Program-made: the position numbers and the translations under genes
In this document: piece after piece, positions 7,810 through 64,000 of the stretch
How the letters are laid out: the number at the start of each line of letters is the position of its first letter
Position numbering within the stretch: position 1 is the first letter of the stretch
The notes under the pieces: model-generated
Databases searched by the model: none
The model's input: the letters and a program-made list of their open reading frames with translations, nothing else
Told to the model about the DNA's origin: nothing
Origin: Erysipelotrichaceae bacterium
Lineage (GTDB): Bacteria > Bacillota_I > Bacilli_A > RFN20 > CAG-826
Assembly: GCA_012837435.1 (NCBI GenBank)
Contig: DURD01000025.1
Coordinates: 5,840-69,839, forward strand
Direction of reading: 5' to 3'
Length of the DNA: 64,000 nt

Positions 7810-7972
7810 ATCTTTCTATCTTAATTGCATAAAAAATGATAAAAAATACGCAAAAAAAGAAAGAATGTGTACGATTTTACGCACAACGTTCTCTCTTAAA
7901 AATACTGTTTCATTAATTTTTTCTGATGTTGTAACTGATTATTTTTCGCTATTACGTGTAACAATTGAATCC

Positions 7973-8032
7973 TCCTTCAAGATTGGTGTCTAAAACTATC
8001 TCAAAGTGTTACACCTAAATTTACAAATTACT
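7973..8032 (+). repeat. Solo second copy of the IS30-type 3' end (direct repeat of 4878-4939)
   Basis: The sequence caagattggtgtctaaaactatctcaaagtgttacacctaaatttacaaattac aligns with caaggttgatgtctgaagctatctcaaagtgttgcactcaagattacaaattac at 4884-4937. The identical core is ctatctcaaagtgtt. It translates as a KVLHLNLQI-type transposase C-terminus with a stop. Confidence 0.7.
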
Positions 8033-8053
8033 ATCAGTAAGGTGCTAGTAAAA

Positions 8054-8461
8054 TTAGTCAACCCATGTAATTAAGACAATAGGAGCATTATCGCCGCGAC
8101 GATTTTCTAACTTATATTGTCTAGTATAACCGCCATCGCGTTCCTTCATCTTCGGGCCAATTTCGCTGAATAATTTGTCTAAAGCTGTGGTGTTTGTTTT
8201 TTTGTCAGCGACGATGTTGCGGACAAATCGAGCGGCTTGGCGTTTAGCGTTCATAACATCTTCTTTTTTAGTTAATGTCACTAAACGATCCGCTTCTTTG
8301 ATGACATCTTTTGCCGTCGCTTCTGTCACTTTGATTGAACCGTGAATGATTAAATCTGTGACAACATTGCGGAGCATGTTTTCATATTTGCTTTTGGTAT
8401 AGGCCGCTTTAAATCTGACACCGGCTTTACCATGAACGTTTTTTCTACCTTGTGCTGGCAT
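8054..8461 (-). CDS. rplQ: 50S ribosomal protein L17
   Basis: The L17 core is present (ENMLRNVVTDLIIHGSIKVTEATAKD...RDGGYTRQYKLENRRGDNAPIVLI). It is the last gene after rpoA. The N-terminus is ~13 aa longer than typical. Confidence 0.95.
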   Translation of the reverse strand: MPAQGRKNVHGKAGVRFKAAYTKSKYENMLRNVVTDLIIHGSIKVTEATAKDVIKEADRLVTLTKKEDVMNAKRQAARFVRNIVADKKTNTTALDKLFSEIGPKMKERDGGYTRQYKLENRRGDNAPIVLITWVD

Positions 8462-8476
8462 AAAGTCTAGCCTCCT

Positions 8477-9442: not shown

Positions 9443-9464
9443 AAATGTTTCCCTCCTAACTTCA

Positions 9465-9851
9465 TTAGCCTCTTGGTTTCTTTGGTGGGCGGCAACCATT
9501 ATGTGGAATGGGGGTGGTATCGACAATCGATAACACTTGTAATCCGGCGACCGCTAGAGAGCGAATAGCTCCTTCTCGACCGGGGCCTGGACCCTTAACG
9601 TTGACATCCACTTGACGAATACCTTGTTCGTAAGCCGCTCTTCCGGCAGCTTCCGCCGCTTGCATAGCGGCGAAGGGAGTGGATTTTTTTGCACCTTTAA
9701 AACCGTTAGCACCAGCGCTGCTCCAAGTGAGAACATTACCTTGTTCATCGCAAATGGTGACAATGGTGTTATTGAAAGTAGCGTGGATATGGGCGACGCC
9801 ACGAGTAAATGTGCGTTTGACTTTCTTTTTACGAATAGTTGTTCTAGCCAT
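9465..9851 (-). CDS. rpsK: 30S ribosomal protein S11
   Basis: [42 protein letters not shown] matches canonical S11. Confidence 0.97.
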
Positions 9852-26472: not shown

Positions 26473-27900
26473 TTATTTAAGAAACAATTTCGTTAAATCG
26501 AGAGAGCCTTTGCCCTCATAAATAAAGGTTACCTTGTCTTTTTCTCCACCTTTTTTAACAGGGAACTTAATTACTTTCATTTCTTTTTTCAAATCAATTT
26601 CTTGAATCGCTTCTTTATTGCCATACTGCATAGTAAGTTTTCCCTGCGCGAAAGAACTATTTACTTCGATACCAAAAGATTTCGTTTCTCTTAAATCAAA
26701 ATATTTGTAAGTGACTGAACACCCGTCGTTAAAGTTCTTTATATATTGATTGGGATTTTCTTCTCTATCGCGACCATGTTGGGTCAAATATGGCTCTTTG
26801 TTGTGGCCCCATTTGAAAATACCATAGAACCTATTACCTTCTTTAGCTCTCAAACCACAGCAAATAGAAGCAAAATATTCTCCTTTTCCTGGTAGGGGTT
26901 TACCGTATAAGCCTTGTGAGGTTCTTTCGACTTGTTTAATCGAACCATCTTCTTCAATAAACACTTCTTCAGCAATAGATTGCCTAGAGAATTGGCATTT
27001 ATTTGTTTGTCTATGGAAAAATATGTAGTAACGACCATTCGCTTCCACCATCGAACCATGAGTGTTACCTGTAAAATCAACAGCGGTTTTACTGTCGACA
27101 TGTTCACCGAGACCGATGTCGCCGTTAGAAACTATCGTGCCCCCTCTTTTGAATGGACCCATTGGACTTTCGCCGATGCAATAACATAGTTCATGACCAG
27201 CTTGTGAAGAATAAATGAAATAATATCGGCCTTTAAATTTGCGCATCGAACTGGCTTCAAAGAAAGCATGAATTCCATATTCATTGTTAACATCGTTTTT
27301 CATAGTAGGGACAGTCAGAACTGGTCCATCGATAACTGTCAGCATATCTTTTGGATCTAGTTCGACAACCGCACCACCCTTAATAGACTTAGAACGCACA
27401 TCAAGCAGAGGGTAAAACATAGCGGTTCCATAATATAAGTAAACGCGTCCATCTTCGACAAAAACCGCTGGGTCAAAGGGAAGATATGACTTATTCCATT
27501 TTCTTAAATCGACATTGCCATGAAATTTAAAAGGTCCCGCTGGGTTATCTGCAACAGCACAGTTGATAACAAAAGAACCACTAGTTATTCCTTGCACTGG
27601 GCAGTAATACAAATAGTATTTTCCATCTGGTCCTTGACAAACATCTGGTGCATAAAAAACTCTTTTACCATTTGTCGTGGGATCATCTGACTTTTTCCAA
27701 ATAACACCTTCGTACCGCCAATCAGATAAATCATCGACGGGAGCGGACCACGTTACATAATCATTCAAGCAGAAATTGTTTCCGTTGAAACGATCGTGAG
27801 AACCATAGATATAAACTCGTTCATTAAAAACGTGAGGCTCAGCATCTGGAATATACTCAAAATTAGGTAAATAAGGATTAGTAACTATTTTTTTCATCAA
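26473..27900 (-). CDS. GH43-family glycoside hydrolase (beta-xylosidase / alpha-L-arabinofuranosidase type), cytoplasmic
   Basis: The N-terminus NPYLPNFEYIPDAEPHVFNERVYIYGSHDRFNGNNFCLNDY is typical of a GH43 five-bladed propeller subfamily. There is no signal peptide. Confidence 0.75.
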   Translation of the reverse strand: MMKKIVTNPYLPNFEYIPDAEPHVFNERVYIYGSHDRFNGNNFCLNDYVTWSAPVDDLSDWRYEGVIWKKSDDPTTNGKRVFYAPDVCQGPDGKYYLYYCPVQGITSGSFVINCAVADNPAGPFKFHGNVDLRKWNKSYLPFDPAVFVEDGRVYLYYGTAMFYPLLDVRSKSIKGGAVVELDPKDMLTVIDGPVLTVPTMKNDVNNEYGIHAFFEASSMRKFKGRYYFIYSSQAGHELCYCIGESPMGPFKRGGTIVSNGDIGLGEHVDSKTAVDFTGNTHGSMVEANGRYYIFFHRQTNKCQFSRQSIAEEVFIEEDGSIKQVERTSQGLYGKPLPGKGEYFASICCGLRAKEGNRFYGIFKWGHNKEPYLTQHGRDREENPNQYIKNFNDGCSVTYKYFDLRETKSFGIEVNSSFAQGKLTMQYGNKEAIQEIDLKKEMKVIKFPVKKGGEKDKVTFIYEGKGSLDLTKLFLK

Positions 27901-37730: not shown

Positions 37731-40700
37731 TTACATATTGAGTATGGATTTAAGTTCTTTGATAGAAAGCGATTTAATTGAAGAGTCGTCGCTGCTAATA
37801 ACTTTATCGACTAATTCTTTCTTTTCGTTTTGCAAATTAACCACTCTTTCTTCAATGCTGTTTTCTGCGATTAATTTAATTACTTCGACCGATCTTGTTT
37901 GTCCGATGCGATGGGCTCTATCACTAGCTTGATTTTCCGCAGAATAATTCCACCATGGGTCGAGATGAATGACCACATCAGCGCCGATTAAATTAAGGCC
38001 CGTACCTCCTGCTTTTAAAGAAATTAATACGACTTCGTATTCTTCATTTTGATTAAATTCATTGCATATTAACAAACGTTCTTTCGCGGGAGTTTCGCCA
38101 GTGATCATGAAAAATTTAATATCCATTTTAATTAGTTCTTCTTTGACGATATTAAGCGCGGAGACAAATTGAGAAAAGATTAAGAACCGATGGTTATCTT
38201 CTCTTTTTACTTTAATGATCTCTTTTAAAGTCGTAATCTTACCTGATTCCCCCACAAAATTATCAACAAAAGTTGAAGGGTCGACACAGATTTGTCTCAG
38301 CCGTGTAATAATCGATAATATTTCCATGACTCTCGTTCCCCCAGTCGATGCTTTGAATTCTTCTTTAGCCTTTAAACGGAAGGCGTCGTAGAGTTTTCTT
38401 TGTTCAGTGGTCATTTCGGTGGTGATAATCACTTCATATTTTTCTGGTAAATCTTTTAAAACATCTTCCTTTCTTCTCCTCAGAATGAAAGGAGCGACCT
38501 TGTTTTTAACAATCTTAAAGTAATCCTTATCGTTTTCAAAAGAATCTTTAAAATCTTCATAATCTAAAAGGTAATTAGGCATCAAGAAATCAAAAATACT
38601 CCACAAATCATAAATGTTATTTTCGATAGGTGTTCCCGTTAAGGCAAATGAATGCAAAGTATTGATTTGCTTAACAGCGTTAGTCTTTTTCGCGTGCATG
38701 TTTTTAATGAATTGAGCTTCATCTAAAATGCAAATATCAAAAGCAATATGAGATAAATTTTCGTATTCATTTCTCAAAGAATCGTAGCTGATAATATAAA
38801 CTCCGAACTTATCATTTTTTATTTTTTTAATAATCTTTTTTCTTTCTTCGACTGTCCCAATAATCGCATACACCGGTATTTTTCTTGCGAATTTAGCAAA
38901 TTCACTTTTCCAGTTAAAAATGAGCGACTTGGGCGAAACGATGAGAATTGGTTTATTTTGTTTTACTAAATCGATGAACGCGATAGTTTCGATAGTTTTT
39001 CCTAAACCCATGTCATCGGCTAAAATGCCCCCTAAAGAATACTTATACAAGATGAAAAGCCATTTAACACCTTCGATTTGATAATTTCTAAGTTCACCAT
39101 CAATAGAAGGAGTTTTGATTTCATAGTTAGCAAAATCTTTTAGTTCATTGAAAACATCATCTAAATAAGAATCCATCGATAAGAAGTCATCATTTTTTCC
39201 GTAAGCCTTGAAAGCATAATATAGTGGTAATTTTTTACTTTTGCTTAAAATATTGTTGGTGATTAAATCAAAGTCTTTGGCTAGTTCGTAAAATTCTTTG
39301 GTTTCTTCAGAAATTAAACTGATAAAATTATCGCCGATTTTAACAAATTTCTTCTTCCGCTTTAAACCAATTAAGATCGCTCTCAACTCTTCATCAGTGT
39401 AGATGGAGCTTTCTGTTAAAACATCGAGCATTGAACCCTCTTTTCTAATGGTGATTTTAGGAGAAGAAAAAGAAGATACTTGGCGGTTGTCTAGATCTTT
39501 AGAAAAATACAGTTCTGCGACAGCGCGCAACGGCTCAAGAGTGCTGTTTAAAAAGTCCCAAACTTTAGCACCATCACTTAACACTGATTCAAAAAACCCA
39601 TAACTTTCTAAAATATTTTGATAATGTTTAATTTGTGAAGTTTCATGAAAATTAGTGATATGTGAAGCTTTTATCTCCATATCATTTTTAAAATACCGAC
39701 TCTCGACATAAATGTTTTCTTTTTCATAATCAAAATAAGCTTTTATTTTTAAAGAAGATTCCAGCATTATTTCTTTAATGTTTTCTGAAATAATAAAATA
39801 TTCTGGGAATTTTTCAAAAAATAGGTATTTAAAATTATCAAAATTATTTTCCACTGTTGAAAGAGGGTAATTTATCGCAGAATCGATTAAATTATTTAAA
39901 TGTTTATTGTCGCTTAAAGCCTTAATTTCGTTCGCTGATTTACACATATAATATTTTTTAGTTAGAGGTATAAATCCAGGAATTATCCCTTCAACATTAA
40001 GAGAATAATCATCATTAGCGTGGATAACTACCGGCATTTTTTCTTCGACAACATGGTATATTTCACCATTTACATATAAATAATCATTCGTTAGACAATC
40101 TAGTAATTCATCTAAAAAAGCGAGTGATGATTCACTTTTTAAATCTATAAAAAAATTGGGACTATATTTTTGTAGAATTTGAATAATTCTTTGACTTATT
40201 TCGTCGAACGAAGCAAGGTTGTGAATTAGAGTTAAATCTTTACCATACCTAAATTCTTCCTCATTATTGAAACGAGATAAAAATCTTTCAATAGAAGCGA
40301 TTTTATAGTCTCGTCCTTTTCCCACTGTGGCGTTAATAGAGTAGGACCAGCGTGTATCTTCTAAATATATTTTTAGGCGAGCTTTGCTACTAGTTTTGGC
40401 AATTTCTTCTTTATACATTTCTTTAAAAACATCGTCCAAGGATAAATCGAAACTTCTTTGCTGTTCACGCCTTTCAACATCAGAAATTTCAAATAAAAAT
40501 TTTTCTGACAAATCTTTAATTTTTTGATATTCTTCTCTATAAATTTTTGTAGCGATAATATTGAAATGATCACAAGGTTTCTTCTCACGACAAATTTCAC
40601 AATTGTACTCAGTTTTACCACTATAAGTAATTCTAAAATCGATGATTTTTAAATGGTTGATTTTTGTTAATAAACGAATAAAAAAAGATGGATGATTTTC

Positions 40701-40808
40701 GGCATCATTTTCGATGCCGTATTCATAAACAAAATATGAAAATAACTCCAGATCTTTTGGTGTTAATTGCTCTAGCTGATAACGTTCTAAAAATAATAAT
40801 ACATCCAT
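37731..40808 (-). CDS. SNF2-family ATPase/helicase with an N-terminal SWIM zinc finger
   Basis: The SWIM motif is CEICREKKPCDH. The SNF2 motifs are GGILADDMGLGKT (I), DEAQFIKN (II), LTGTPIEN (III), LISLKAGGTGLNL (V) and DPWWNYSAENQASDRAHRIGQ (VI). Confidence 0.9.
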   Translation of the reverse strand: MDVLLFLERYQLEQLTPKDLELFSYFVYEYGIENDAENHPSFFIRLLTKINHLKIIDFRITYSGKTEYNCEICREKKPCDHFNIIATKIYREEYQKIKDLSEKFLFEISDVERREQQRSFDLSLDDVFKEMYKEEIAKTSSKARLKIYLEDTRWSYSINATVGKGRDYKIASIERFLSRFNNEEEFRYGKDLTLIHNLASFDEISQRIIQILQKYSPNFFIDLKSESSLAFLDELLDCLTNDYLYVNGEIYHVVEEKMPVVIHANDDYSLNVEGIIPGFIPLTKKYYMCKSANEIKALSDNKHLNNLIDSAINYPLSTVENNFDNFKYLFFEKFPEYFIISENIKEIMLESSLKIKAYFDYEKENIYVESRYFKNDMEIKASHITNFHETSQIKHYQNILESYGFFESVLSDGAKVWDFLNSTLEPLRAVAELYFSKDLDNRQVSSFSSPKITIRKEGSMLDVLTESSIYTDEELRAILIGLKRKKKFVKIGDNFISLISEETKEFYELAKDFDLITNNILSKSKKLPLYYAFKAYGKNDDFLSMDSYLDDVFNELKDFANYEIKTPSIDGELRNYQIEGVKWLFILYKYSLGGILADDMGLGKTIETIAFIDLVKQNKPILIVSPKSLIFNWKSEFAKFARKIPVYAIIGTVEERKKIIKKIKNDKFGVYIISYDSLRNEYENLSHIAFDICILDEAQFIKNMHAKKTNAVKQINTLHSFALTGTPIENNIYDLWSIFDFLMPNYLLDYEDFKDSFENDKDYFKIVKNKVAPFILRRRKEDVLKDLPEKYEVIITTEMTTEQRKLYDAFRLKAKEEFKASTGGTRVMEILSIITRLRQICVDPSTFVDNFVGESGKITTLKEIIKVKREDNHRFLIFSQFVSALNIVKEELIKMDIKFFMITGETPAKERLLICNEFNQNEEYEVVLISLKAGGTGLNLIGADVVIHLDPWWNYSAENQASDRAHRIGQTRSVEVIKLIAENSIEERVVNLQNEKKELVDKVISSDDSSIKSLSIKELKSILNM

Positions 40809-52468: not shown

Positions 52469-53281
52469 TTAGTCGATAACACCTTTTTTGTAATTAACTT
52501 TGAAAAAATTTGCCAATAATCTCAATTGGTCATCAGTAATTGTATTAATTCTCTTTTGAGTAGAAGTTAGCATGTATATTTCCGCAGCTTTTTCAAGAGT
52601 TTCAATTAAACCAAAAGCTTCATCAAGATTTTTGCCACAAGCGTATATCCCGTGCATTCCCCAGATGACAAGGCGATATTCTTTCATTTTTTCACTAGTG
52701 GCATCTCCGATTTCATTAGTTCCACAGAGCATCCAAGGAAGAACGCCGATGCCTTCAGGAAAAACGACTATGCACTCTGTTCCCATTTTCCACATGTCTC
52801 GTGTGATAGAGATTTCATCTAATTCGTGAACGCAGTTCATCGCGAGTATATTTGTGGGATGGCAATGCATAATTACTCTATTTTCTGGATCAACTTCGAG
52901 TCTCTGCATGTGGCATTTCATATGAGAAGGAAATTCAGAAGTAAACACCCCACCATCTTCAAAACCCCACAGCAGTTCTGCATGGTGTCCATCTTTGGCA
53001 ATCCGGATTAAACCCAGGGTAGTTTCTGGTGAGCAAACAACATTTCTAAAATATTTACCGCTGGAGGTTACAAGGAAGTATTTTCCAGCCAATTTCTCCG
53101 CACAAAAATCAAATGGAATCGTTCTAATAACCACGTTCTTGTCAATATAGCCTTCTAATTCTTCGTCAGTCACTAGCAAACTGACATTACCGCCATTTCT
53201 CTCATCCCATCCGTGATGATACATGCCGTAAATAATGTCTCTCATTTTTTTAAAGAATGAGGATTCCAAAATGTTTTTCAT
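52469..53281 (-). CDS. rhaD: Rhamnulose-1-phosphate aldolase
   Basis: HHGWDERNGGNVSLLV...VTSSGKYFRNV...RVIMHCHPTNILAM...GTECIVVFPEGIGVLPWM..GT.EIG is collinear with E. coli RhaD as I remember it. Confidence 0.93.
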   Translation of the reverse strand: MKNILESSFFKKMRDIIYGMYHHGWDERNGGNVSLLVTDEELEGYIDKNVVIRTIPFDFCAEKLAGKYFLVTSSGKYFRNVVCSPETTLGLIRIAKDGHHAELLWGFEDGGVFTSEFPSHMKCHMQRLEVDPENRVIMHCHPTNILAMNCVHELDEISITRDMWKMGTECIVVFPEGIGVLPWMLCGTNEIGDATSEKMKEYRLVIWGMHGIYACGKNLDEAFGLIETLEKAAEIYMLTSTQKRINTITDDQLRLLANFFKVNYKKGVID

Positions 53282-53305: not shown

Positions 53306-55852
53306 CTATAATTCTTCTACGAGACTATAATTTCCGCTTCTAAATGTCTTAATTTCTCCTCTGGGAGTTACCACTTGGCATTTTGTACCAAACGGAACTT
53401 TAAAAGATAAGTCTACCGATTTTTTTGACTTTTTCCACATGACATTAATTTCTCCATACGGAGTCATGGTTTTACCACTGACGTTGTCCAAACCACAGTT
53501 GTATAGAGGTTTAATAATAAAGCTCTTATAACCGCCTTCTAACGGTTCTAATCCAAGGAGGCGACGATACAAGAAATCGCCAACAGCACCCAGAGCATAA
53601 TGGTTAAACGAAACCATTCCCCCAGTACCATCTTCTTCAGCAAAGTTCAATGTGCCGTCCGCTTTTAGGGCGTCCCACCTCTCCCACATTGTTGTAGCGC
53701 CAACTTTAACGGGGTAAAGCCAGGAAGGACATTTATCATTAAAGAGCATCTTAAAAGCGACATCCTCCCTACCATTATCTGCTAGAGCAAAAAGAATATA
53801 AGGAGTTCCTGGAAAACCTGTAGCCACACAATAATCTTTTTCTTCTACAATTTTGACTAAGTTTTCTACAGCTAGAGGCTTAGTTTCTTCTTTAAACATA
53901 TCGAAGGCTAAGGGGAGAACATAAGCGGTTTGGAATTGTTTTCCTAAGATTAGTCCTTGACCATCAGTCAACTTGCTTTCATAAGCATCGCTGACTTTTT
54001 GAAAGATTTCTTGATAGTAAATAGCGTCATCATTTTTTCCTAAAATAGTAGCAATATCGGCGAGCATCTTACTCGTATTAGCTAAACTTGCGGTCGCTGT
54101 CCATTTATGACGTTTCTGCCATTCGCTCATTTTATCTGTATCGGGAGCCACCCAGTCACCAAAGTGCAACATCGATAAACTTTTCCAAATATAGCGAGAT
54201 TTACCAAAACTCAGGAAATTTGCCCACCATAAACAAGCTTTGTGGTACTTCTTAATCGTCTCGTAGTTCTCGATTAGAATAGTTTTATCCCCATGAGCCA
54301 TGTAAAGAGCCCATGGAACCATCACGCAGGCGTCACCCCAGAAATCAATTGCCTTATGCGGCATTGTCAGAGGGAAACCATGACTTTGAGATGGGATAGT
54401 GTTGGGAAAGCCGCCCGTTCTAATTTGTTCACTTCTCATGTCTTTTAACCATTTTTTTAGAAAAATTTGCATATCGAAGTTGTAACAAGCGACCAGCGAA
54501 AACAAACCAATATCACCCGTCCAACCCATTCTTTCATCGCGCTGCGGACAGTCAGTTGGAATTTCCACAAAATTCGATTTGGCACTCCAAACAATATTTT
54601 GTTGTAATTGATTGATTCTCTTATCACTACATGAAAATGAACCGACAGTTTCTATATCGGAATAAATAGCGCGAGCTTCAATTTCGATGTTTTCTTTTTC
54701 TATGCCAGAAACTCCAATGTATTGAAAACCCATATATGTAAAAGTAGGAATGAATTCTTGATTCCCGTCTTTACAAATATATTCGATGGTGCACTTGGCT
54801 TTTCTCAGTAGTTTTGTGCATAATTCTCCGTTGTGAAGAACTTCGGCGTGACGAATAACAATTCTTTGACCTTTTTTGGCATTTTTTACCTTGAATTTAA
54901 CTACGCCAGAAAAATTTTGTTCAAACTTATAAATGTCTTCGCCACTCGGAGATTTGCTCACCGAAACCGGCAAAAATGATTCGTGTAATCTGACAAATTC
55001 ACCATAAGTAGCCGTTAATTTTTTTGGATTTGTTTTAACTTTTTCTAGACAAGCCTCGTGAAAATCAGTTTCAACTAAATTAGCATCATAAATTTCGCCA
55101 TCATATAGATCAACGTAAATATATGGCCCCTTCGTGGTGACAAGCCAGCTTTCATCAGTGGGAATTGTTTCTACTTTCTTTTTATCTTCCAAACGAATTT
55201 CAGCTTTAAGTGCTTGTCGATCCGCGGAAATGCGGTTTTTATGACCATAGGTAAAATCACCCACAGCCCAACCACCGGCTACGACAACTTTAATTTCATT
55301 ATCTTTCTTCAAGAACTTCTTAATATCGTATATTTGGTATTGAAGATTTTCTTTGTAGTTAGTAAATCCTGGTGTGAAATAGTCTTCGCCCACACGCTTT
55401 CCATTGATATAGAGTTTATAAACACCGAGAGTGGTAATGCTAATTAAGGCTTTTTCCGGAATTTTATCTAGATGTAATTTCTTCACAAAAGTCATCACTT
55501 TGGGAGAACCTTTTCCAGTGAATTTATACTTCCCATCGCTAATCCAATTAGCCGTCCACGGAGTTTGTAATCTACCCGTATCAAATGACGTTTCATATGT
55601 CGCCACATCACCAAATCGGTCAGTGGCTTTTAATTTGACTGCATAATGAGAAAATGGAGTTAGTTTACCATCGAAGTCAGTGCGAATTTGATCAATAACC
55701 TCTTTTTTCCATTCGTTATTGACTAATATTTGAGCGGACTTTAAGTAATTCTCTTCTTTGTCGCTTTCAAGGGCAAACCCAAAGAAAGGATTTTCATCAA
55801 TATAGCGAGATTTATTGCTTCCATTAATAATAAATTTGATAACCTTCAGCAT
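53306..55852 (-). CDS. Alpha-L-rhamnosidase (GH78), cytoplasmic
   Basis: It has DCPQRDERMGWTGD and the usual N-terminal beta-sandwich regions (ITTLGVYKLYINGKRVG). There is no signal peptide. Confidence 0.9.
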   Translation of the reverse strand: MLKVIKFIINGSNKSRYIDENPFFGFALESDKEENYLKSAQILVNNEWKKEVIDQIRTDFDGKLTPFSHYAVKLKATDRFGDVATYETSFDTGRLQTPWTANWISDGKYKFTGKGSPKVMTFVKKLHLDKIPEKALISITTLGVYKLYINGKRVGEDYFTPGFTNYKENLQYQIYDIKKFLKKDNEIKVVVAGGWAVGDFTYGHKNRISADRQALKAEIRLEDKKKVETIPTDESWLVTTKGPYIYVDLYDGEIYDANLVETDFHEACLEKVKTNPKKLTATYGEFVRLHESFLPVSVSKSPSGEDIYKFEQNFSGVVKFKVKNAKKGQRIVIRHAEVLHNGELCTKLLRKAKCTIEYICKDGNQEFIPTFTYMGFQYIGVSGIEKENIEIEARAIYSDIETVGSFSCSDKRINQLQQNIVWSAKSNFVEIPTDCPQRDERMGWTGDIGLFSLVACYNFDMQIFLKKWLKDMRSEQIRTGGFPNTIPSQSHGFPLTMPHKAIDFWGDACVMVPWALYMAHGDKTILIENYETIKKYHKACLWWANFLSFGKSRYIWKSLSMLHFGDWVAPDTDKMSEWQKRHKWTATASLANTSKMLADIATILGKNDDAIYYQEIFQKVSDAYESKLTDGQGLILGKQFQTAYVLPLAFDMFKEETKPLAVENLVKIVEEKDYCVATGFPGTPYILFALADNGREDVAFKMLFNDKCPSWLYPVKVGATTMWERWDALKADGTLNFAEEDGTGGMVSFNHYALGAVGDFLYRRLLGLEPLEGGYKSFIIKPLYNCGLDNVSGKTMTPYGEINVMWKKSKKSVDLSFKVPFGTKCQVVTPRGEIKTFRSGNYSLVEEL

Positions 55853-55864: not shown

Positions 55865-58800
55865 TTACTGCGCTCTTTTTTTCTTTTCTAAAATTTCCAA
55901 AATTTCACTTGTTATCAACAATCCTGTTGCGCCAACAAGCGCTATTACTGAAACAGCGATGAGTGAATTCGTGACGTGCTCCCACCACGGAGTAATAGTA
56001 ACAATTTTGGTCGTTAGTGAAATACCATTCATCGCCGAAGAGAAGTTAACTGTAACATAGAGCATTCTCTTTGTTGCTTCTCTAATCCTTTGATTGAAAG
56101 TTGGAGAGCTTGACCATGGGCCTAACGTGGATTCATTACCACTCATTAAGAAACAAGTTGTACCATTCATAAAGCCATCATCAAGAGCCATGATACCACC
56201 ACCATTGGATTCAGCCATATCGGTAATCGCATAACCATCAAAATTCCATTCATCTCTTAAAATACTGAACATAAGGTCGCTGCTAGCGCTAGTCCAGAGA
56301 CATCCTGCTCTATTAAAAGACGTCATCATAGCGTGAGCGCCCCCATATTTGCTGCCTTCGACAATATTCCAATCTTCATCTAATTCTGCTGGAGAACATA
56401 CATATTCCCACGGCAATAGATAAATTTGTCTAACAGCTTGTTCATTGCACCAAATACCAATGCCGTTACGATTGCTTTCTTCATCGTTTAAAATATAGTG
56501 TTTTGGATGAGCAATGACCCCTTGCTTTTGCATTTCTTGAACTTGGTAAACACCCGCGACCGCGGAAAGAAGGGGATCTTCTGAGAAGTATTCACTGGCA
56601 CGACCACCAAAGACCGCGCGGTGAATATTGATGCCAGGAGCATATAAACCATTGAGTTTATTATTGTTGATACCTGCTTTATCAGCATCCCTTCTTGCAT
56701 CTGCGGCAAATGCTTCACCGACTTTCTTATATAAATCTACATTAAAAGTAGAAGCGATGATACCAGCACAACTCATTGAAGAATAGGCATATGGAGAATG
56801 GCTGACGCCATATGGGCCGTCATCTTCATCCGTATATGGTTTAACGATACTGTCGATCGCGGTGGTATAGCCAAAGCAATCTGTTAAGTATCGAGAAATT
56901 TGTTCATAAGTTAATTGATCTAATAATTTGTCCCATTGGGGATCGTCGTAGTCGACATGGCGTAATTGCAATAGTGTCAAACCATTATTTTCACCATACA
57001 GTGGCATTTCAGCACCTTCATCTTCCACAATTGGTTTATTGATAGAGATGTCGTATTTAACCGCCCCTTTATCAGTGAGAACTAATTCAGTTTTAGCTTG
57101 GGGGAATGAATCTTTCCAGTTGAGACGAGAAACGTAGGTAACGCGCTTATCTTCTGTCGCACTATTTTCAACGCCTTCATATCTATTGGGATCCATGAAA
57201 GCTAATCTGCTAGAAATTTTTTCGCCAGATTGCTCTGATGTAGCAAATTTCGTTTTGTTTAATCTATCATTATGAAATGCAACTTTAGCTAATGAAGCAT
57301 TTCCTACTCTATCCATATTCGCAGGAGCGATAGTTCTATCTCCAGCATTCAAGCGAGCTTGTAAGATATTGTTGATTGCATCATGAGAATCTTTCGCGGC
57401 AGTTAAATAATAATCGCCCGCATCTAAGATGTACGTTTTCGCTGCGAGAGCGTCGAACACGCGCATGCTTTCCTCTTGGACTCTAATTAATAAAGTTTCG
57501 CTCTGATCAGCGTTCAGCATTTTAGTTTTTCCAAAACCCACTAGTTCGACCGATGGTTTTTCAATTTCAAATGTCTGGTCGTAAATTGTATAGGGTTGTT
57601 GCATATAAATTTGAACAGTTTCTTTTCCTGGGTAAGTGCCAGTATTGGTAACTTTAACACTCACTTGGAAATCACCGTCCTCTAAAGTCGAAACAACCAT
57701 ATCAGAATATGTGAACGTCGAATAAGAAAGCCCATAGCCAAAGGGATAGGCTACAACACTATCGTAATCAAAATTGCCGACATTGCTTCTTTGGACAACA
57801 AAATCTTCATATCTAGTTTCAAAGTAGCGATAACCGACATAAATGCCTTCGGCATAAACACCATAATATTTTTGAGCGGCGGTTAAGCCTAGTTCCCCAC
57901 TATTCGCGTATGCCGAAGAGAAACCTTCGTTGACTTTCCAATAAGCGTTCGCTGGAGCGGCAAAGTTATCTTTCATAAAAATGTCAGATAAACGACCGCT
58001 GGGGTTAACTTCTCCTTTTAAAGCTTTGGCCACGGAATAAACGCCATTACATCCAGGATTGCCAATCCACATAGCGGCATCAATGTTGAGCGATTCATTG
58101 AATAAGAAATCGCACTGAATTTGCATTGCAGAGTTGAGCAATATGACGATTTTTTTGATTTTCCCTTCGGCTTTCTTTTGCGCCAAAGCAGAAAGAACAC
58201 TCAATTCATCATTTGTTAGCGACAAGTAGCTACCATCCACCCCATCACTGTTGATGTAAGAAACATCACTACCTTCGCCCGAAATCCGAGTGATTACCGC
58301 GACGGCGACATCTGTATTATCAATTGATGCTCTGACGTTTTCTGGATAGCTAGTCCATGGTTTTTCATTTGTATAGAATGTACCACTGCGCAAACCTCTA
58401 CCAGTTTTACCAGCGTCGAGATAGTAGTTAAATAAAGTTTCATTAACTGTAAAACCAGTCTCGATTAATGCTGTATCAAAACGTGTTTTTTGAATGTTTG
58501 GCGCCGCTCCTGGTCCGTGAGTGGCATAAAAGATACTCGCCGATCCACTTAACACTAAGGAAAGACTTCTTTCATTCTCAGCTAAAGGAAGGGCGTTTGC
58601 TTCGTTTTTAAGAAGGACTAAACCTTCGTCTTGAACAGCAATATTGACTGCTTTATAGTAGTCTTCAATATTGCTTGAATTGTATTTTTGTTCAAAATAT
58701 TGGTGATCTTCTGGATTATCGTTTTCATCGAAAACAATCTTGCTGGTCTGAATCTGAAACGTCTCATTTAATAGACCTGATTTTGCATGAGCTACATCGC

Positions 58801-59329
58801 TTACGACAATAGAAACCGCAAAAAAACAGGCGAGACAGATAGAGGTAGTTTCCCAAGCTTTTTTCTTGAACAACTTGCCTAACTCAATTTTTTCTGCCTC
58901 TTTATAATAGTTTCTCTTGTGCAGGGCCGCGGCGACAAAACCACTGACGACCGCTAAGAAATAGATAATTGTTTGAGAAATATAATAGGAAACGACTTCT
59001 GGCGCGACTGGGTCGGTAGCGATAATCCAGTTGGACCAAAAGTTCACTTCATTGATAAAGAATTCTAAGAATCCGAATAAAGTAGCTACCGCCGCAATAT
59101 ATTTTAAATAACGGATGTTGATAACTAAAGAAAGAATTGAAAAAGTAATACCAATTCCTAATAGTGTTAGTACCGCTGAGGCCAGTTTGTTTTGATTATA
59201 TTGAGTTGCACCTGATTGGCTATAGATTACGAGGAATACAATAGATAAAACTAGTGACACAATTTCAATGTAGAAATGTGGTTTCTTGTAAAAGTCCTTA
59301 TCAAATAATTTATTTAGTATTTTTTTCAT
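55865..59329 (-). CDS. Membrane-anchored GH3-family glycosidase with reversed domain order, N-terminal 5-TM module and C-terminal TM helix
   Basis: Residues 1-190 hold about 5 TM helices. Next come GH3 C-terminal-domain motifs (EGLVLLKNEANALPL, ITRISGEGSDV, NPSGRLSDIF), then GYGLSYSTFTYS plus an Fn3-like region. The GH3 catalytic-barrel motifs come last (NIHRAVFGGRASEYFSEDP, KHYILNDEESNR, MTSFNRAG, YAITDM). The final TM helix ends in KKKRAQ. Confidence 0.8.
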   Translation of the reverse strand: MKKILNKLFDKDFYKKPHFYIEIVSLVLSIVFLVIYSQSGATQYNQNKLASAVLTLLGIGITFSILSLVINIRYLKYIAAVATLFGFLEFFINEVNFWSNWIIATDPVAPEVVSYYISQTIIYFLAVVSGFVAAALHKRNYYKEAEKIELGKLFKKKAWETTSICLACFFAVSIVVSDVAHAKSGLLNETFQIQTSKIVFDENDNPEDHQYFEQKYNSSNIEDYYKAVNIAVQDEGLVLLKNEANALPLAENERSLSLVLSGSASIFYATHGPGAAPNIQKTRFDTALIETGFTVNETLFNYYLDAGKTGRGLRSGTFYTNEKPWTSYPENVRASIDNTDVAVAVITRISGEGSDVSYINSDGVDGSYLSLTNDELSVLSALAQKKAEGKIKKIVILLNSAMQIQCDFLFNESLNIDAAMWIGNPGCNGVYSVAKALKGEVNPSGRLSDIFMKDNFAAPANAYWKVNEGFSSAYANSGELGLTAAQKYYGVYAEGIYVGYRYFETRYEDFVVQRSNVGNFDYDSVVAYPFGYGLSYSTFTYSDMVVSTLEDGDFQVSVKVTNTGTYPGKETVQIYMQQPYTIYDQTFEIEKPSVELVGFGKTKMLNADQSETLLIRVQEESMRVFDALAAKTYILDAGDYYLTAAKDSHDAINNILQARLNAGDRTIAPANMDRVGNASLAKVAFHNDRLNKTKFATSEQSGEKISSRLAFMDPNRYEGVENSATEDKRVTYVSRLNWKDSFPQAKTELVLTDKGAVKYDISINKPIVEDEGAEMPLYGENNGLTLLQLRHVDYDDPQWDKLLDQLTYEQISRYLTDCFGYTTAIDSIVKPYTDEDDGPYGVSHSPYAYSSMSCAGIIASTFNVDLYKKVGEAFAADARRDADKAGINNNKLNGLYAPGINIHRAVFGGRASEYFSEDPLLSAVAGVYQVQEMQKQGVIAHPKHYILNDEESNRNGIGIWCNEQAVRQIYLLPWEYVCSPAELDEDWNIVEGSKYGGAHAMMTSFNRAGCLWTSASSDLMFSILRDEWNFDGYAITDMAESNGGGIMALDDGFMNGTTCFLMSGNESTLGPWSSSPTFNQRIREATKRMLYVTVNFSSAMNGISLTTKIVTITPWWEHVTNSLIAVSVIALVGATGLLITSEILEILEKKKRAQ

Positions 59330-59350
59330 ATTATTTGTTCTCCTTGTTCT

Positions 59351-61399
59351 CTATTTGCGGTTGAGAAATTCTCTATATTCAATCATTGTGAGTCCATTTG
59401 TTTCTTCAGTGAAAATATAGATACAATCAATCATGGGGGCATTAGCTCTAAATGTACCAGCGCCGTAATCCCAAGAGTTATTAGTAATAAAGCTAATCAT
59501 GTTGTAACCTTCACTTAAACTGAAATGATAAGAGATGATGACGTCTTCAAATGGCGTCTTTTCGCCATCTGGATCATTTTCTCTTTCTGTATTGGGAAGT
59601 GGTAAAGTCAATGGTAGTTCGTACTCAAACTCCACACCATTTACTAAGACAGAATAGGTTTCTGGAGTTAAGGGATTGTGATGTAGTTCCTTGAACTCGG
59701 AAGAAACTCTCATGACTAAAACTGCATCTTCGATAGCTTGATCCGCCATTATTTCAAAGTTAATTCCTGCACCACTATAGTATAGACCAGCAACATACCA
59801 ACCATTGCTGACCCAATCAACACCGGTATTGTTACCAGCCCCAATCTTTTCATAGGAGAAGATCATCGCTTCTTCATATAACTCGACCGAGGAACCAACT
59901 CCATGCATATCTTGCAAGTTGACAAACTCAGCTTCAAATGTATTGCGTTTAACGATGCGACCATAAATCATGGTATCGTTATTGATAACTTTGTTAGGAT
60001 CGTATTCGTTTGTCAAGGCGGCATCTGTATACCAGTTGATAAACATGTAGTCGTTGTCGGTATGCGTGTTAGCGAACGCTGGTTTGTTTGGCATTTTATC
60101 CGCACCAATAAAATCACCTTTATCGACTTCAACAGTAGCGTGAGTTACCGTCGCTCCACCTTTAATGTAGGTAAAGGTAACTGTGGCTTTGCCGCTAGTA
60201 GCAACTGCCCAATGAGCATACAAAGTCTTATCAGAAGTAATCTTATCAGTAGCAACGTTAAATTCTGTTGCATCATCGCCTGCGCCATTGAACCATCCTA
60301 AAAATACATAACCATCTCTAGTTGGGTTGGCTGGGCGATTAATTAATCCTTGGTACTTGATACTTTGATCATTAGGTGCACCTGTTGCGCCCTCATAGTT
60401 CAAATCGAATTTTACCGTATAACTATTAATGTTCCATTTTGCATAGATTGTTATATCGTCTTTAACTTCGTTCAAATTGTACGGAGTGGTTAATGCGGCA
60501 TCTGTATACCAAGTAGCATCTAATGTATAGCCTTCCCTTACAAATACGGGAGGTACGGCTACTGGATTAGCTAATGGCACTCTAACCACAATTGGTTGCA
60601 AAGTACTTACATTTGGATTGAATGTTACAGCATAAAATTGGCGAACCCATTTTGCGTATAAAATGATGTCGTCCTCAAATCCAACTGTTAGGTCAACTGC
60701 CACATCTGTTTCTGCAGGGAAGGCTTTTGTATACCATCCAGCAAAAGCATATAAATCCCGCTCTAAAACTACAGTAGGAGGGAGAGCTACTTCTTGATTG
60801 ACAGAAGCGCTAACAACCACGTTAGTAGGCGCTCCCGTATAATTAAAATTAAAAGTAATGGAAATTGCGGAGCGTGTCCATCCACAATAAAGGACCAGAT
60901 CTTCCACGACTACAGAATCAAAATCATATGGCTCTGTACAGAGAGCGTTTAAGAACCATCCGTCGAATGTATATCCATCTCTTACTGGCTCAGCAGGTTC
61001 ACTAACCTTAGCACCCGCATCAACATTTACGACATCATCACTTTTATCAGTGTTGTATTTGAAAGTAACAATATTGACATTTTTACTCCATTGACCATAG
61101 AACTCGGTATCAGAAGTAATTGGGGATTCAAAATCAAAAGTTTCTAATCCTTCATAGTCTGTTGTCCAACCATTGAACGTATACCCGTCTCTTATTGGAT
61201 CGCTCGGAGCGGTAGCGGTTTCGCCAGATTTAACTGTTTGAACTGTATATCCTGCGCCTGGGTAACCGATGAAGAATGTCACCCGGCAATTATCTTCATT
61301 TGAAATTGAAATACTCGGTTTGCCATCACACCCGACAAGTACCATCGACATTGCCGTGAACATAGCTAGAACTTTAAACAACTTATTTCTACTTTTCAT
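59351..61399 (-). CDS. Surface lipoprotein with six Listeria-Bacteroides (InlB B-repeat/Flg_new-like) repeats and a C-terminal CBM-like domain
   Basis: The lipobox is LVGCDG. It has six ~70-aa repeats, each containing (D/E)GY.F.GW(F/Y)(T)D and ending in (I/L)Y(A/G).W. The C-terminal ~200 aa form a beta-rich domain (EAEFVNLQDMHG...). Confidence 0.75.
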   Translation of the reverse strand: MKSRNKLFKVLAMFTAMSMVLVGCDGKPSISISNEDNCRVTFFIGYPGAGYTVQTVKSGETATAPSDPIRDGYTFNGWTTDYEGLETFDFESPITSDTEFYGQWSKNVNIVTFKYNTDKSDDVVNVDAGAKVSEPAEPVRDGYTFDGWFLNALCTEPYDFDSVVVEDLVLYCGWTRSAISITFNFNYTGAPTNVVVSASVNQEVALPPTVVLERDLYAFAGWYTKAFPAETDVAVDLTVGFEDDIILYAKWVRQFYAVTFNPNVSTLQPIVVRVPLANPVAVPPVFVREGYTLDATWYTDAALTTPYNLNEVKDDITIYAKWNINSYTVKFDLNYEGATGAPNDQSIKYQGLINRPANPTRDGYVFLGWFNGAGDDATEFNVATDKITSDKTLYAHWAVATSGKATVTFTYIKGGATVTHATVEVDKGDFIGADKMPNKPAFANTHTDNDYMFINWYTDAALTNEYDPNKVINNDTMIYGRIVKRNTFEAEFVNLQDMHGVGSSVELYEEAMIFSYEKIGAGNNTGVDWVSNGWYVAGLYYSGAGINFEIMADQAIEDAVLVMRVSSEFKELHHNPLTPETYSVLVNGVEFEYELPLTLPLPNTERENDPDGEKTPFEDVIISYHFSLSEGYNMISFITNNSWDYGAGTFRANAPMIDCIYIFTEETNGLTMIEYREFLNRK

Positions 61400-61484: not shown

Positions 61485-61526
61485 AAAACACAACCGACAC
61501 GCTTTGAAGTCATCTCAGCGTGTCGG
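61485..61526 (-). terminator. Intrinsic terminator/attenuator hairpin after the collagen-stalk GH3 gene
   Basis: A perfect 10-bp stem (ccgacacgct / agcgtgtcgg) has a 13-nt loop. On the minus strand it is followed by TTGTGTTTT. Confidence 0.6.
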
Positions 61527-61580
61527 ATTGTTTAGAGATCCTACCTACGCTTGGTTGAATCTATTTTTTGTTTTTCACGA

Positions 61581-64000
61581 CTATTCGTGTTTTCTTGAAT
61601 GTTTTTTAGCAGCGACAAATGCTAATCCAAGAGCAGCAACTATAGCCATAATGCTAGATGTAGCAGCAATGGAGCCACCACAACCTTTTGGAACTTCTGC
61701 ATCTTTGCCATCCGCACCCGCAGGACCTTGAGGACCTGTGGCTCCGGTAGCACCGGTTTCACCTTTTGGACCTTGAGGACCAGCTGGGCCTTGAGCACCG
61801 TCTTGTCCATCCGCACCCGCAGGGCCTTGAGGACCTGTGGCTCCGGTAGCACCTGGTTCACCTCTGTCACCTTTAGCACCATGAGCGCCATCAGCACCAT
61901 TAGTTATAGTAAAGCGATATGTTGTGCCGTCAGCATATGTAATTTCATAGGTGTCGACTAAGCCTTCGCTACTAACTTTTTCAATGGATGAAATGCCACC
62001 GTGATCGACTGGAACGGGAGCGCCTTCACCAGTAACATTTAGTGTTATGGAGAGTTTGTAGACTACTCCTCCGCTTCTTACGCCGATAACGAGGTCGTAA
62101 GTTCCTGGAACAGTTGGTTGACCTGAAATCTTACCATCTCTTCCGAGAGTTAAACCTTCTGGTAACTCGCCTTCAACTATCAAGTATGAAGGATTTGCAA
62201 GTTCTGTAGAAATTGCTGCTTCACTATCTTCACCAACTTCGAGATTAAGATTAGAAGCTGTGATGGCTGGAGTAATAACAATCTTGAAATTGTTAGTTTG
62301 AGTAATCCATTTGTCAAATGTACCTTTAACAGAGAATTGGAACGTGCCTGCAACGCGTGGAGTACCAGAAATGATGCCGGTATTTTCATCTAGGGCTAGA
62401 CCTTCTGGTAATTCGCCAACGAGTTCATATTTTTCATAGATGACTTCGCTATCAATAGAAGCATCGATTGCGGCAATTGCAGTACCTTGTTTACCTGTTA
62501 ATTCTAAATTCCCCGTGTACATATTGAGGACTAAACCGTTTCTGCTATGACCTTGGTTAGCGTACTCGCTAAACATTTGCATCGCTCTGAAACGAATGAT
62601 GTACCATTGGTTATTAGAGATTACTGCTTGTTGACCAGTTCCTGGGTTATCAATACCAATCTTGACAACGCCTTTTGTACCAGTTAACGGGTTATTAGTT
62701 TCAGCATCCCAATAGCCTGATAATGCGTTGGCACCGGTATTGCCTTGTCCAAATGTTCCACCTGGAGCATGGTTGTGACCAGTACGGACCATCAAGTCTT
62801 CGCCCGCAACGTTAGCTTGTGGACTATACATATCTGGATGGAAGAAGAATCTTTCTGCTCCCCATTCAGTACGGGTTAACACATCACACATATTGAAGTG
62901 GACTGGGGTTGGAACTGAACCTAAACGCGCGAACGCTGACATAGCGCCTTCAGCACCACCTTCTTGAATACCCATCTGGAATGGTTTGAGATAGACTTCT
63001 CTAGCCGCTCTTTCGGATACCCATGCGAATAGGTCATTAGTATTACGATTGGTTTCTTGATCGTTGAATGCCATATGTTTTAAGTGACAGCCAACGCCAG
63101 TGGATTGAATGCCGTACGCACAAGCGGCAGCCATGTATCCGGCGTGTATTCCATCTTGTGAATAGTATTCATTATTTCTGCCTGAGAATGGAGTTCTGTG
63201 AGTGTTTACAGCAGGGTTCAACCATTGCTCTTTAGCATTGTTCATGTTAGTGGAGTTCTTTAATAGACCTAAAGAAGCTGTAATAACACCTTGTTGATAG
63301 ACTAAATTTTGATTCCAAGTAGAAGCAATTGTCGTATTGCAGCACCATGAATAAGTGCCGTTAAAGGAAGTTGGGCTATCGGCAATACCTCCATTAGGAA
63401 TACCTAAGTTAGGAACTGGCTTACCGTTGTTTCCGCCTTGCCAACAGGCTTCTTGGAAGTCTATCCATGTCCATTGATTCATGAACTGTTTCCAGACTTC
63501 TGCGCCGGTCATATCTTTGAATCGGCCTTCGGTAATAACTTCTTGGCTATCGTAGTAAATGCCTGCTAATTCATTGAACCAAATCCAGTCACTATCCTCA
63601 GCTTCAATCGCTGCTCTTTGTGCAGCGGCATTAGGCATTTGTGACCAACCTGCCATCATTTCGGCTGTGACATCGTACAAGTCTTCTTGGCCAGGTTTAT
63701 TTCTGCCTTCGAGACCTTTGTGTAATTTGTCGGAATACTTATAAGAGCCAATATTTTCTTGCAATAATTTTTCTGTTTTATCGTTCAAAAGACCTGCTTG
63801 ATATGTTTCTGTGATATCCGTAACATTTGCCGATCCACCAGATGTGAAAACGTAATTGTTAATAGTAACAGCAGTAACGTTTCCTCTACTACCGGTATTA
63901 ATTGCTCCGCCTGCTGGGATTGCTTGTGTAACCCTATAGGCTGTGCCGTTATATGTGATCAAATCTCCAACAGCATACGCACTACCGGGAACGTAGGCTG
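61581..64000 (-). CDS. GH3-like surface protein with He_PIG-type Ig repeats, collagen-like G-X-Y stalk and C-terminal TM anchor (5' end outside the window)
   Basis: The frame stays open to base 64000 (...[23 protein letters not shown], a CBM5/12-like motif), and the ORF-track M at 63962 is an internal TTG. GH3 barrel motifs are [30 protein letters not shown] and MSAFARLG. Two Ig-like repeats match GELPEGL.L...G.ISG.P. These are followed by 22 G-X-Y triplets, a TM helix and KKHSRKHE. Confidence 0.8.
61701..61898 (-). repeat. Collagen-like G-X-Y coding repeat (22 triplets) containing a ~99-bp internal duplication
   Basis: The sequence is [66 protein letters not shown]. The DNA string ccttgaggacctgtggctccggtagcacc occurs twice, near 61728 and 61827. 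The region is locally GC-rich. Confidence 0.9.

Follow-up and report, generated by a model that had tools for sequence, protein, structure and literature searches.

How do Firmicutes of gut, rumen and biogas communities display very large carbohydrate-active enzymes at their surface without sortase? This question is raised by a gene at one edge of a 64-kb stretch of DNA (64,000 nucleotides (nt), hereafter the window) from contig DURD01000025.1 of an Erysipelotrichaceae bacterium (assembly GCA_012837435.1). The gene codes for a protein of 1518 amino acids (aa) in the glycoside hydrolase family 3 (GH3), and, taken as a whole, the locus is probably best explained by a Sec-exported, cell-surface GH3 exo-glycosidase of permuted topology that is carried on a collagen-like rod with a Gly-Cys C-terminal tail. 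The answer suggested here is a modular spacer joined to a C-terminal signal. Bacterial collagen-like stalks, permuted GH3 enzymes and Cys-containing C-terminal signals are all known kinds of element; their combination is apparently undescribed.

Within the window, the gene is a single open frame of 805 codons (61581-63998 on the minus strand, with its stop codon at 61581-61583) that exits at the window edge. The complete gene (positions 5263-9819 of locus L007; L-numbers denote comparison loci, and P-numbers homologous protein clusters or relatives) was found in two Logan assemblies, SRR2917897 and SRR2917898, which were reached through the neighbouring lipoprotein gene. Both assemblies reach past the window edge and agree with the window at 0 mismatches over 14,650 nt, and the samples behind them were taken from a mesophilic, production-scale biogas plant fed with maize silage and manure (PMC8879888). 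A frameshift or an assembly artefact splitting the collagen-like tract from the enzyme was considered and is ruled out, since the window is matched exactly by these independent assemblies and the arrangement is found in many syntenic relatives. A preliminary description, made from the letters of the window, had reported one uninterrupted minus-strand frame combining several modules and had proposed to recover its 5′ end; the translation and the two matching assemblies bear out the former, and the complete 1518-aa protein is now in hand.

From the N-terminus onwards, the protein consists of a typical Sec signal peptide, the GH3 sandwich, an Fn3-like domain, three CBM5/12-like motifs, the GH3 barrel, two He_PIG domains, a small beta module, a tract of G-X-Y triplets and the tail. 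In Pfam, the full-length sequence matches GH3_C at residues 73-326 (PF01915, 72.6 bits, cutoff 31), Fn3-like at 444-527, CBM_5_12 at 714-745, GH3_N at 935-1093 (PF00933, 30.8-32 bits, cutoff 27), two He_PIG stretches, and Collagen at 1420-1474. For the fragment encoded in the window, four matches were obtained, all of them above the gathering scores: CBM_5_12 (residues 1-32, 26.9 bits, cutoff 26.2), Glyco_hydro_3 (residues 222-380, 32 bits, cutoff 27), He_PIG (two stretches, the best at 526-576 with 47.2 bits, cutoff 24) and Collagen (residues 707-761, 30 bits, cutoff 27.2). The two He_PIG-like repeats of the preliminary description are confirmed by these scores. Its CBM5/12-like motif is also present in the window, but the full protein has three such motifs and not one (Pfam scores only one of them, the two extra ones having been recognised by eye). 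Similarly, the barrel motifs that it named do belong to a PF00933 domain, but the barrel is only half of the catalytic unit, as GH3_C and the Fn3-like domain lie upstream, in permuted order and outside the window. With both PF01915 and PF00933 matched, the N-terminal part of the protein is assigned to a glycosidase family, as had been supposed.

The permuted-topology subfamily of GH3 was defined by the rumen enzyme GlyA1, in which the order of domains is sandwich, FnIII and barrel (PMC5104943). As the order is the same here, the protein, judged by its sequence, is a member of that subfamily. Its closest match in the Protein Data Bank (PDB) is 5WUG (E = 3.5e-48), and 2X40 (E = 4.7e-45) and GlyA1 itself (5K6L, E = 8.6e-38) are also matched; all of them are beta-glucosidases. 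When the protein is aligned to 2X40 (T. neapolitana Bgl3B), Asp D1102 of the motif HPDM falls on D242, the nucleophile in SDW, and residues of three further motifs are retained (Arg in NTHR, Lys-His in LKHM, Arg in ETNR). The GH3 assignment is thus well supported by the 5WUG match and by the retained nucleophile Asp and KH motif. By contrast, two residues of subsite -1 differ from those of glucosidases: the Tyr of SAYN has become the Phe of MSAF, and the Trp adjacent to the nucleophile has become Met (in GlyA1 numbering, Phe for Tyr-677 and Met for Trp-710), so that specificity may differ from that of GlyA1. The candidate acid/base, the counterpart of Glu-143 in the sandwich domain of GlyA1, is approximately E160 in ARGGGEGSD, which resembles GRTAGEDKD of 5K6L; this is a likeness of motifs only, as an insertion of about 28 residues is present and the segments were not aligned in register by HMMER. 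The protein is very probably a retaining exo-glycosidase, whose sugar specificity is not readable from the sequence.

The protein is like the permuted GH3 beta-glycosidases (GlyA1, PDB 5K6L-5K6O, and 5WUG) in domain order, in the position of the catalytic Asp and in the KH motif, and it shares with GlyA1-type enzymes the same kind of habitat, that is, plant-fibre-degrading gut or rumen communities. In contrast, the characterised permuted enzymes are without He_PIG domains, collagen stalk or anchor, and the three CBM5/12-like inserts likewise set this protein apart from them.

The collagen-like tract has 22 perfect G-X-Y triplets, a number far beyond chance, and here the preliminary description was exact in both count and coordinates. 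PF01391 matches the tract at 29-30 bits, in the fragment and in the full-length protein, and Pro occupies 7 of the 22 X positions and 8 of the 44 X and Y positions. The DNA that codes for the tract (61708-61898) contains a 99-nt unit in 1.9 copies with 83% identity, an internal duplication that is consistent with lengthening and shortening of the stalk through recombination. The number of triplets is in fact variable, with 15 in the 95%-identical relative P0001 against 22 here, and from 5 to 28 across relatives. When divergent orthologues are aligned, the Gly columns are invariant and the G-X-Y periodicity is kept. The rise per residue in a collagen triple helix is 0.286 nm; the 66 residues of the tract would therefore span about 19 nm if triple-helical, and, with the two Ig domains added, the heads may stand some 25-30 nm out, which is about the thickness of a Gram-positive wall. 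In the AlphaFold2 (AF2) model of the monomer, the tract is unstructured and of low confidence.

The small beta module that directly precedes the tract resembles the collagen-flanked surface repeat of Pfam (PF19079, CFSR), with a sub-threshold score of 18.6 bits (cutoff 27). Near-identical modules adjoin G-X-Y tracts in unrelated proteins of three other loci. In two Eubacteriales metagenome-assembled genomes (MAGs), the module is repeated in leucine-rich-repeat lipoproteins (L003:9605-17353 and L005:9605-13708), and a tail-fibre-like protein of a Victivallis vadensis MAG has a single module (L006:2741-6109, 65% identity over the best segment); the sequence of the module includes FTITNG. As the module is found beside G-X-Y tracts in unrelated proteins, module and collagen repeats look like a mobile cassette that travels as one piece, and the module may nucleate the collagen helix or set its register.

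Uninterrupted G-X-Y tracts between a globular head and a cell-envelope anchor are also found in Scl1 and Scl2 of Streptococcus pyogenes and in BclA of Bacillus, in which, as here, the number of triplets varies between close strains. Matches of the tract were obtained to the SclA and SclB models and to 1WCK, a chain of BclA, but at scores far below the cutoffs of those families, of which the protein is therefore not a member. Furthermore, the head here is a multidomain glycosidase of about 1400 aa, in contrast to the small adhesin or C1q-like domains of Scl and BclA, and the anchor is a Gly-Cys tripartite tail, where Scl has LPXTG and BclA relies on attachment to the exosporium. The Klebsiella pullulanase PulA is another parallel, as it is a surface-exposed glycoside hydrolase with G-X-Y repeats, which are reported (Charalambous et al., 1988) to stabilise trimers. 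PulA, in contrast to the present protein, belongs to GH13; its collagen-like stretch is short and N-terminal, its anchor is a lipobox at the N-terminus, and it lacks the combination of stalk and C-terminal anchor. The collagen-like sequence of PulA is mentioned in PMC3022705.

The fusion of GH3 with collagen repeats is real, widespread in rumen-type and biogas communities, and unnamed. When the 68 closest protein clusters were classified by their C-terminal ends, 11 were found to have a G-X-Y tract (5-28 triplets) followed by the Gly-Cys tail, and in at least 16 the Gly-Cys tail is preceded by coiled-coil heptads, by a linker rich in Ser, Thr and Pro, or by a Flg_new domain. About 10 have a transmembrane (TM) tail without Cys, and about 31, including the 66-69%-identical P0004-P0009, end right after the He_PIG domain or are truncated. 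A pattern scan of metagenome contigs gave 13 further GH3-collagen loci at 27-67% identity, and one collagen-bearing member, MBQ9482249.1 from a Clostridia MAG, is annotated just as a GH3 C-terminal domain protein; no close orthologue was found in a scan of GTDB genomes. Literature searches returned no characterised enzyme with the GH3-collagen architecture and no paper on it or on collagen-glycosidase fusions, and none that was relevant for “collagen-flanked surface repeat” or GCGGS. This agrees with the preliminary description, whose author was aware of no characterised GH3 enzyme of this kind; as to the frequency of the fusion, which it had left to be queried, it is not described in any paper found but neither is it unique, as it recurs across rumen and biogas metagenomes.

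Since the position of the stalk may be taken by collagen, a coiled coil, a Ser/Thr/Pro linker or a Flg_new domain, or be empty, the conserved role appears to be that of a spacer. All these variants have in common an extended spacer that separates the Ig domains from the membrane, and collagen is one solution among several. Consequently, the stalked, membrane-tethered glycosidase of the preliminary description is retained in so far as a collagen-type tract is followed by a TM tail, but its stalk has to be seen as one option in a modular spacer system. Trimerisation would be a plausible extra.

The tail that follows the G-X-Y tract is 39 aa long (61584-61700) and not 37, as had first been counted, and the single TM segment, the basic end and the lack of LPXTG noted at that time are evident in its sequence. 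Ahead of its TM segment the tail has neither LPXTG nor a related Pro-x-Thr motif; GCGGS stands in that position. Gly-Cys is invariant in the 24 tails collected from GH3 homologues and is present in 56 of 56 distinct tails, 33 of which were found by means of the GCGGSI pattern itself; in the 56 tails the distance from Cys to the basic cluster is 24-25 residues, and Cys lies 29-35 residues from the end. The metagenome scan, for which the pattern GCGGSI[IAV]Ax[ST] was back-translated against contigs, yielded 33 loci in which a long open reading frame (ORF) has the motif at its extreme end, with a hydrophobic stretch and then a Lys/Arg cluster after it. In 20 of these 33 loci, the tail-bearing protein is unrelated to the GH3 core. 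Such carriers include S8 subtilases with a PA domain, Y_phosphatase3, Big_2 and CBM_X2 proteins; they are found in L020-L041 (e.g., L029:2237-5482, L031:2107-6096, L039:1129-5523, L026:4363-6099, L032:2842-6099 and L041:1599-4109), and in L037 two tail-bearing genes lie side by side (1486-4605 and 4636-6099). The same tail is present in a Clostridia MAG (MBQ9482249.1). The membrane anchor proposed at first, with its TM segment and basic C-terminal end, is therefore more than an ad hoc device, as it is a module common to unrelated proteins.

Against Pfam and NCBIfam, the tails gave weak, sub-threshold matches to LPXTG-type anchors through their TM and basic parts, and no specific model was found; Gram_pos_anchor matches 20 of the 24 tails weakly, MYXO-CTERM models match only 2-3 of the 24 (E about 0.04-0.09), and Synerg-, JDVT- and CGP-CTERM are absent among the matches listed. 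A profile of the 24 tails gave nothing at E <= 10 against 5.8 billion proteins, a database for which the profile is too short. Nor is an LPXTG-type protein encoded in the 64-kb window, which says little about the whole genome. A survey of Cys-containing signals by Haft describes MYXO-, JDVT-, Synerg- and CGP-CTERM, none of them from Firmicutes (10.1101/2023.06.07.544157). In view of its composition and distribution, the tail is apparently an undescribed, portable, Cys-containing, tripartite signal of the sorting type, and it seems to represent a C-terminal sorting signal of the Cys type that is new for Gram-positive bacteria.

A close parallel is the MYXO-CTERM/myxosortase system, which also has a tripartite C-terminal signal with an invariant Cys (Gly-Cys here, compared with GCGC), a TM helix and a basic cluster, carried by many unrelated exported proteins; CPBP/Rce1-like proteases are encoded near the present tail in some loci. 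That system differs from the present tail, which is found in Firmicutes, has the signature GCGGSI and a Lys-rich instead of an Arg-rich end, reaches the cutoff of no existing hidden Markov model, and involves no outer membrane or type II secretion step; in addition, the CPBP gene is here paired with a divergent Lgt homologue. The likeness to enzymes anchored by LPXTG and sortase in Firmicutes is of another type, as it concerns the TM and basic parts of the tail and overlapping kinds of cargo (cell-envelope S8 proteases with PA domains are known LPXTG/sortase cargo), but GCGGS takes the place of LPXTG or a related Pro-x-Thr motif.

Two side observations concern the carriers of the tail. A small membrane protein of the DUF3899 family adjoins three tail-bearing S8-protease genes (L029:1746-2168, L031:6224-6619 and L020:2371-2598), the one in L020 resting only on a weak tblastn match (E about 2e-4). 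Besides, Big_2 proteins that end in the GCGGS tail and measure about 1000 aa are encoded directly upstream of GH78 genes (L032:6131-8653, L035:6139-7029 and L040:6153-9499); in L040, an aldolase and an FGGY kinase follow GH78, a second rhamnose-linked use of the tail.

In the order of events proposed for myxosortase, an Lgt-like enzyme lipidates the Cys, after which a CPBP protease cleaves, and the lipidating enzyme has not yet been identified (PMC11980579). In four comparison loci (L029, L037, L041 and L042), a CPBP/Rce1-like gene lies less than 10 kb from tail-bearing genes, and in three of them (L029, L037 and L042) an Lgt homologue is adjacent to it. These four CPBP genes were found by tblastn and Pfam, an earlier regular-expression screen having missed them. 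The two genes of the pair overlap by 14 nt in L029 and L042 and are convergent in L037. The CPBP motifs EExxxR, FxxxH and HxxxN/D are intact, and the proteins match MrtS, MrtJ and Mrt_core below cutoff only, while the Lgt homologues score 63-71 bits against the cutoff of 118.9 of the Lgt equivalog models. It is a possible reading, though a tentative one, that GCGGS, TM segment and Lys/Arg tail constitute an undescribed sorting signal of Firmicutes (Erysipelotrichia and Clostridia), which would be processed by the Lgt paralog and the CPBP/Rce1-like protease to leave a C-terminal lipid, by which large surface enzymes such as this collagen-stalked GH3 would stay attached. If this is true, the Lgt-CPBP pair would give a first lead from genome data to the lipidating enzyme that has been postulated for signals of the MYXO-CTERM type, and its occasional linkage to the tail makes it testable which enzyme modifies the invariant Cys before cleavage of the myxosortase type (PMC11980579).

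The following course of events is proposed. The tail would stop transfer in the membrane and leave its basic end inside the cell. The G-X-Y tract would assemble into a rigid rod about 19 nm long, most likely as a triple helix of three identical chains whose register is set by the neighbouring beta module, and rod and Ig domains together would lift the catalytic heads through the wall layer toward bulky plant glycosides. There, the enzyme would act with the Flg_new lipoprotein and a second, membrane-anchored GH3 and, in this genome, also with GH78 and RhaA, RhaB and aldolase. It is less certain that an Lgt-like enzyme would lipidate the Cys of the tail, that the helix and the basic end would next be cut away by an intramembrane protease of the CPBP/Rce1-like kind, and that the protein would remain held by a C-terminal lipid. 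Trimerisation as well as lipidation and cleavage of the tail are proposed steps. A GH3 on a collagen stalk, perhaps as a trimer, would have a quaternary design that is new to the family, and would offer a ready-made scaffold for enzyme display.

Several points weigh against this proposal. The existence of orthologues with Ser/Thr/Pro linkers indicates that oligomerisation is not required for the function of the family, the AF2 monomer is uninformative on the G-X-Y tract and models the TM helix with low confidence, subsite -1 departs from that of glucosidases at two residues, and the acid/base Glu has been placed by motif similarity only. To our knowledge, moreover, there is no precedent in the GH3 family for three heads of about 1400 aa forced together. 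The enzyme could instead be monomeric, with a tract that is not triple-helical and serves as one of several interchangeable, extended, protease-resistant linkers, as would be consistent with the Ser/Thr/Pro-rich linkers or single Flg_new domain used by orthologues at the position of the stalk, with the variation from 5 to 28 triplets, some tracts being too short for a stable helix, and with the few prolines (8 of 44 X/Y positions) of a bacterial protein that would have no hydroxyproline. We regard this as unlikely, since 22 unbroken triplets with Gly invariant across divergent orthologues argue for selection on a helix-forming pattern and not on length alone. In addition, it is textbook knowledge that Scl2 and BclA, which are of similar composition, form stable triple helices, the Scl and BclA models match the tract, and most of the alternative stalks are coiled coils, themselves rods that oligomerise. 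It would be far less probable that the collagen-like region is mainly an adhesin, comparable to Scl1 or Lcl, which binds a ligand of the host or the substrate while the GH3 part is secondary or inactive. The NCBIfam models SclA, SclB and Lcl do match the tract at low scores, and two subsite -1 residues are substituted; however, these matches cover the G-X-Y repeats only (46 bits against a cutoff of 400), the source is a biogas plant fed with maize silage and manure and not host tissue, the protein retains the catalytic Asp, KH and R, and its gene belongs to a sugar-catabolic cassette with GH78 and Rha genes.

As regards the tail, the proposed processing has to be set against another design, in which it serves simply as a type-I membrane anchor and undergoes no processing, so that the protein stays attached by its TM helix, while the Cys forms interchain disulfides that staple the chains to one another at the membrane or is S-acylated without cleavage. 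A hydrophobic stretch followed by KKHSRKHE is a normal stop-transfer arrangement, some family members have TM tails without Cys in the same position, and Cys knots at the ends of the helix are, according to textbooks, used by animal collagens. The Lgt/CPBP pair, moreover, is absent from the 64-kb window, from the 13 GH3-collagen loci of the scan (flanks up to 6 kb) and from 7 of 8 further GH3-homologue loci. The link to these enzymes is consequently drawn from 4 out of about 40 contexts, and Firmicutes commonly carry CPBP genes. These absences, which favour the plain anchor, speak at the same time against a processed signal. Yet the module of GCGGS, TM segment and basic end, with its fixed spacing, also terminates subtilases and phosphatases of monomer type that have neither collagen nor coiled coil, and one Cys per chain cannot close a knot of three chains. 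The strict invariance of Gly-Cys and the recurrence of CPBP and Lgt-like genes nearby are better fitted by a signal that is recognised and processed, and we consider the unprocessed anchor rather improbable, if less so than the monomeric linker.

The preliminary description had also suggested that membrane anchoring without LPXTG would suit a wall-less or sortase-poor organism. The SecY protein encoded in the window shows 91% identity with the SecY of an Erysipelotrichia MAG and 79% with its counterparts in Erysipelotrichaceae MAGs, and Erysipelotrichia are a walled lineage of Gram-positive descent; on this placement a wall-less host was rejected, and the suggestion is unsupported. The presence of the same tail in a Clostridia MAG and of genes of the DltA/DltB families (AMP-binding and MBOAT) in related loci also speaks against it.

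Table 1. Location of the features discussed (window positions, unless a comparison locus is named).
Feature	Position	Strand	Basis or remark
C-terminal 805 codons of the 1518-aa surface GH3 gene	61581..64000	-	Translation; 5′ end beyond the window
Third of three CBM5/12-like motifs, in the linker between Fn3-like domain and GH3 barrel	63903..63998	-	Pfam CBM_5_12; 18-residue motif at 63930-63983
Core of GH3 (alpha/beta)8 barrel (PF00933)	62859..63335	-	Contains 18-residue motif (63153-63206) and 12-residue motif (63045-63080)
HPDM, predicted nucleophile Asp D1102	62829..62840	-	Alignment to 2X40
First He_PIG Ig-like domain	62265..62471	-	Pfam; AF2 beta-sandwich, pLDDT about 80-90
Second He_PIG Ig-like domain	62022..62264	-	Pfam, AF2 model
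Small three-stranded beta module, 34 aa	61899..62000	-	AF2 pLDDT 87-91; directly precedes G-X-Y tract
Collagen-like tract, 22 uninterrupted G-X-Y triplets, 66 aa	61701..61898	-	Translation, Pfam PF01391
G-C-G-G-S signature, predicted outer membrane face	61671..61685	-	Gly-Cys in 56/56 distinct tails (33 found via GCGGSI pattern)
Hydrophobic TM segment, about 21 residues	61608..61670	-	AF2 helix (low confidence)
Basic cytoplasmic end KKHSRKHE, then stop	61584..61607	-	Translation
Intrinsic terminator hairpin and U-run, downstream of stalked GH3 gene	61485..61531	-	Fold -23.7 kcal/mol, z = -6.1
Flg_new-repeat lipoprotein, lipobox LVGC, downstream partner of stalked GH3	59351..61399	-	
Second permuted GH3 (GH3#2), TM segments at both ends	55865..59329	-	N-terminal 150 aa are a 4-TM protein
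GH78 alpha-L-rhamnosidase	53306..55852	-	
Class II aldolase, candidate rhamnulose-1-phosphate aldolase	52469..53281	-	
Overlapping Lgt (PF01790) and Rce1-like (PF02517) pair	L029:252-1749		With a DUF3899 gene, precedes tail-bearing S8 protease
Rce1-like and Lgt genes	L037:9258-10817		After two adjacent tail-bearing proteins and a lipoprotein
Rce1-like gene, contig begins inside it	L041:1-204		Short contig; 1.4 kb upstream of tail-bearing protein
Overlapping Lgt/Rce1-like pair	L042:1-1002		NCBI MAG GCA_947632015.1; 9 kb upstream of GH3-collagen gene

The stalked GH3 gene is followed by a terminator hairpin that was seen by folding and had been missed by a terminator scan, the loop limit of which was probably too short. 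The Flg_new lipoprotein beyond it is kept as a neighbour in every related locus whose flank extends far enough. In more than 20 loci, a cassette is formed by the stalked GH3, this lipoprotein, GH3#2 and, in most of the loci, an ORF of about 150 aa with four TM segments; a LytTR two-component system is often found next to it. In the window, the part of the cassette downstream of the stalked GH3 lies at 55865-61399, and the relatives are found among L009-L055. The 4-TM protein is a separate ORF in relatives, but in the window it is fused to the N-terminus of GH3#2 (residues 11-152). The cassette is flanked by GH78 and Rha genes, with a divergent DeoR regulator, RhaA and an FGGY kinase (RhaB) lying upstream, past the window edge. 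Given GH78 and the RhaA, RhaB and aldolase neighbours, the job of the system is likely to be the trimming, at the surface, of sugars from rhamnose-containing plant glycans or glycosides, followed by catabolism of the rhamnose.

In three related loci, a Dlt-like set consisting of an LRR_5 protein, an AMP-binding enzyme, an ORF of 80-94 aa and an MBOAT acyltransferase stands beside the cassette (L042:3493-9720, L050:18819-23981 and L055:9578-14746). Elsewhere in the window, a second, more divergent GH78-like protein is encoded at 1929-4337 on the minus strand, and there are also genes for a nickel-insertion (LarC-type) protein (6592-7809, plus strand), a GH43 (26473-27900, minus strand) and a helicase of the SNF2 family (37731-40808, minus strand). 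The cluster of ribosomal-protein genes with SecY lies at about 8-24 kb of the window.

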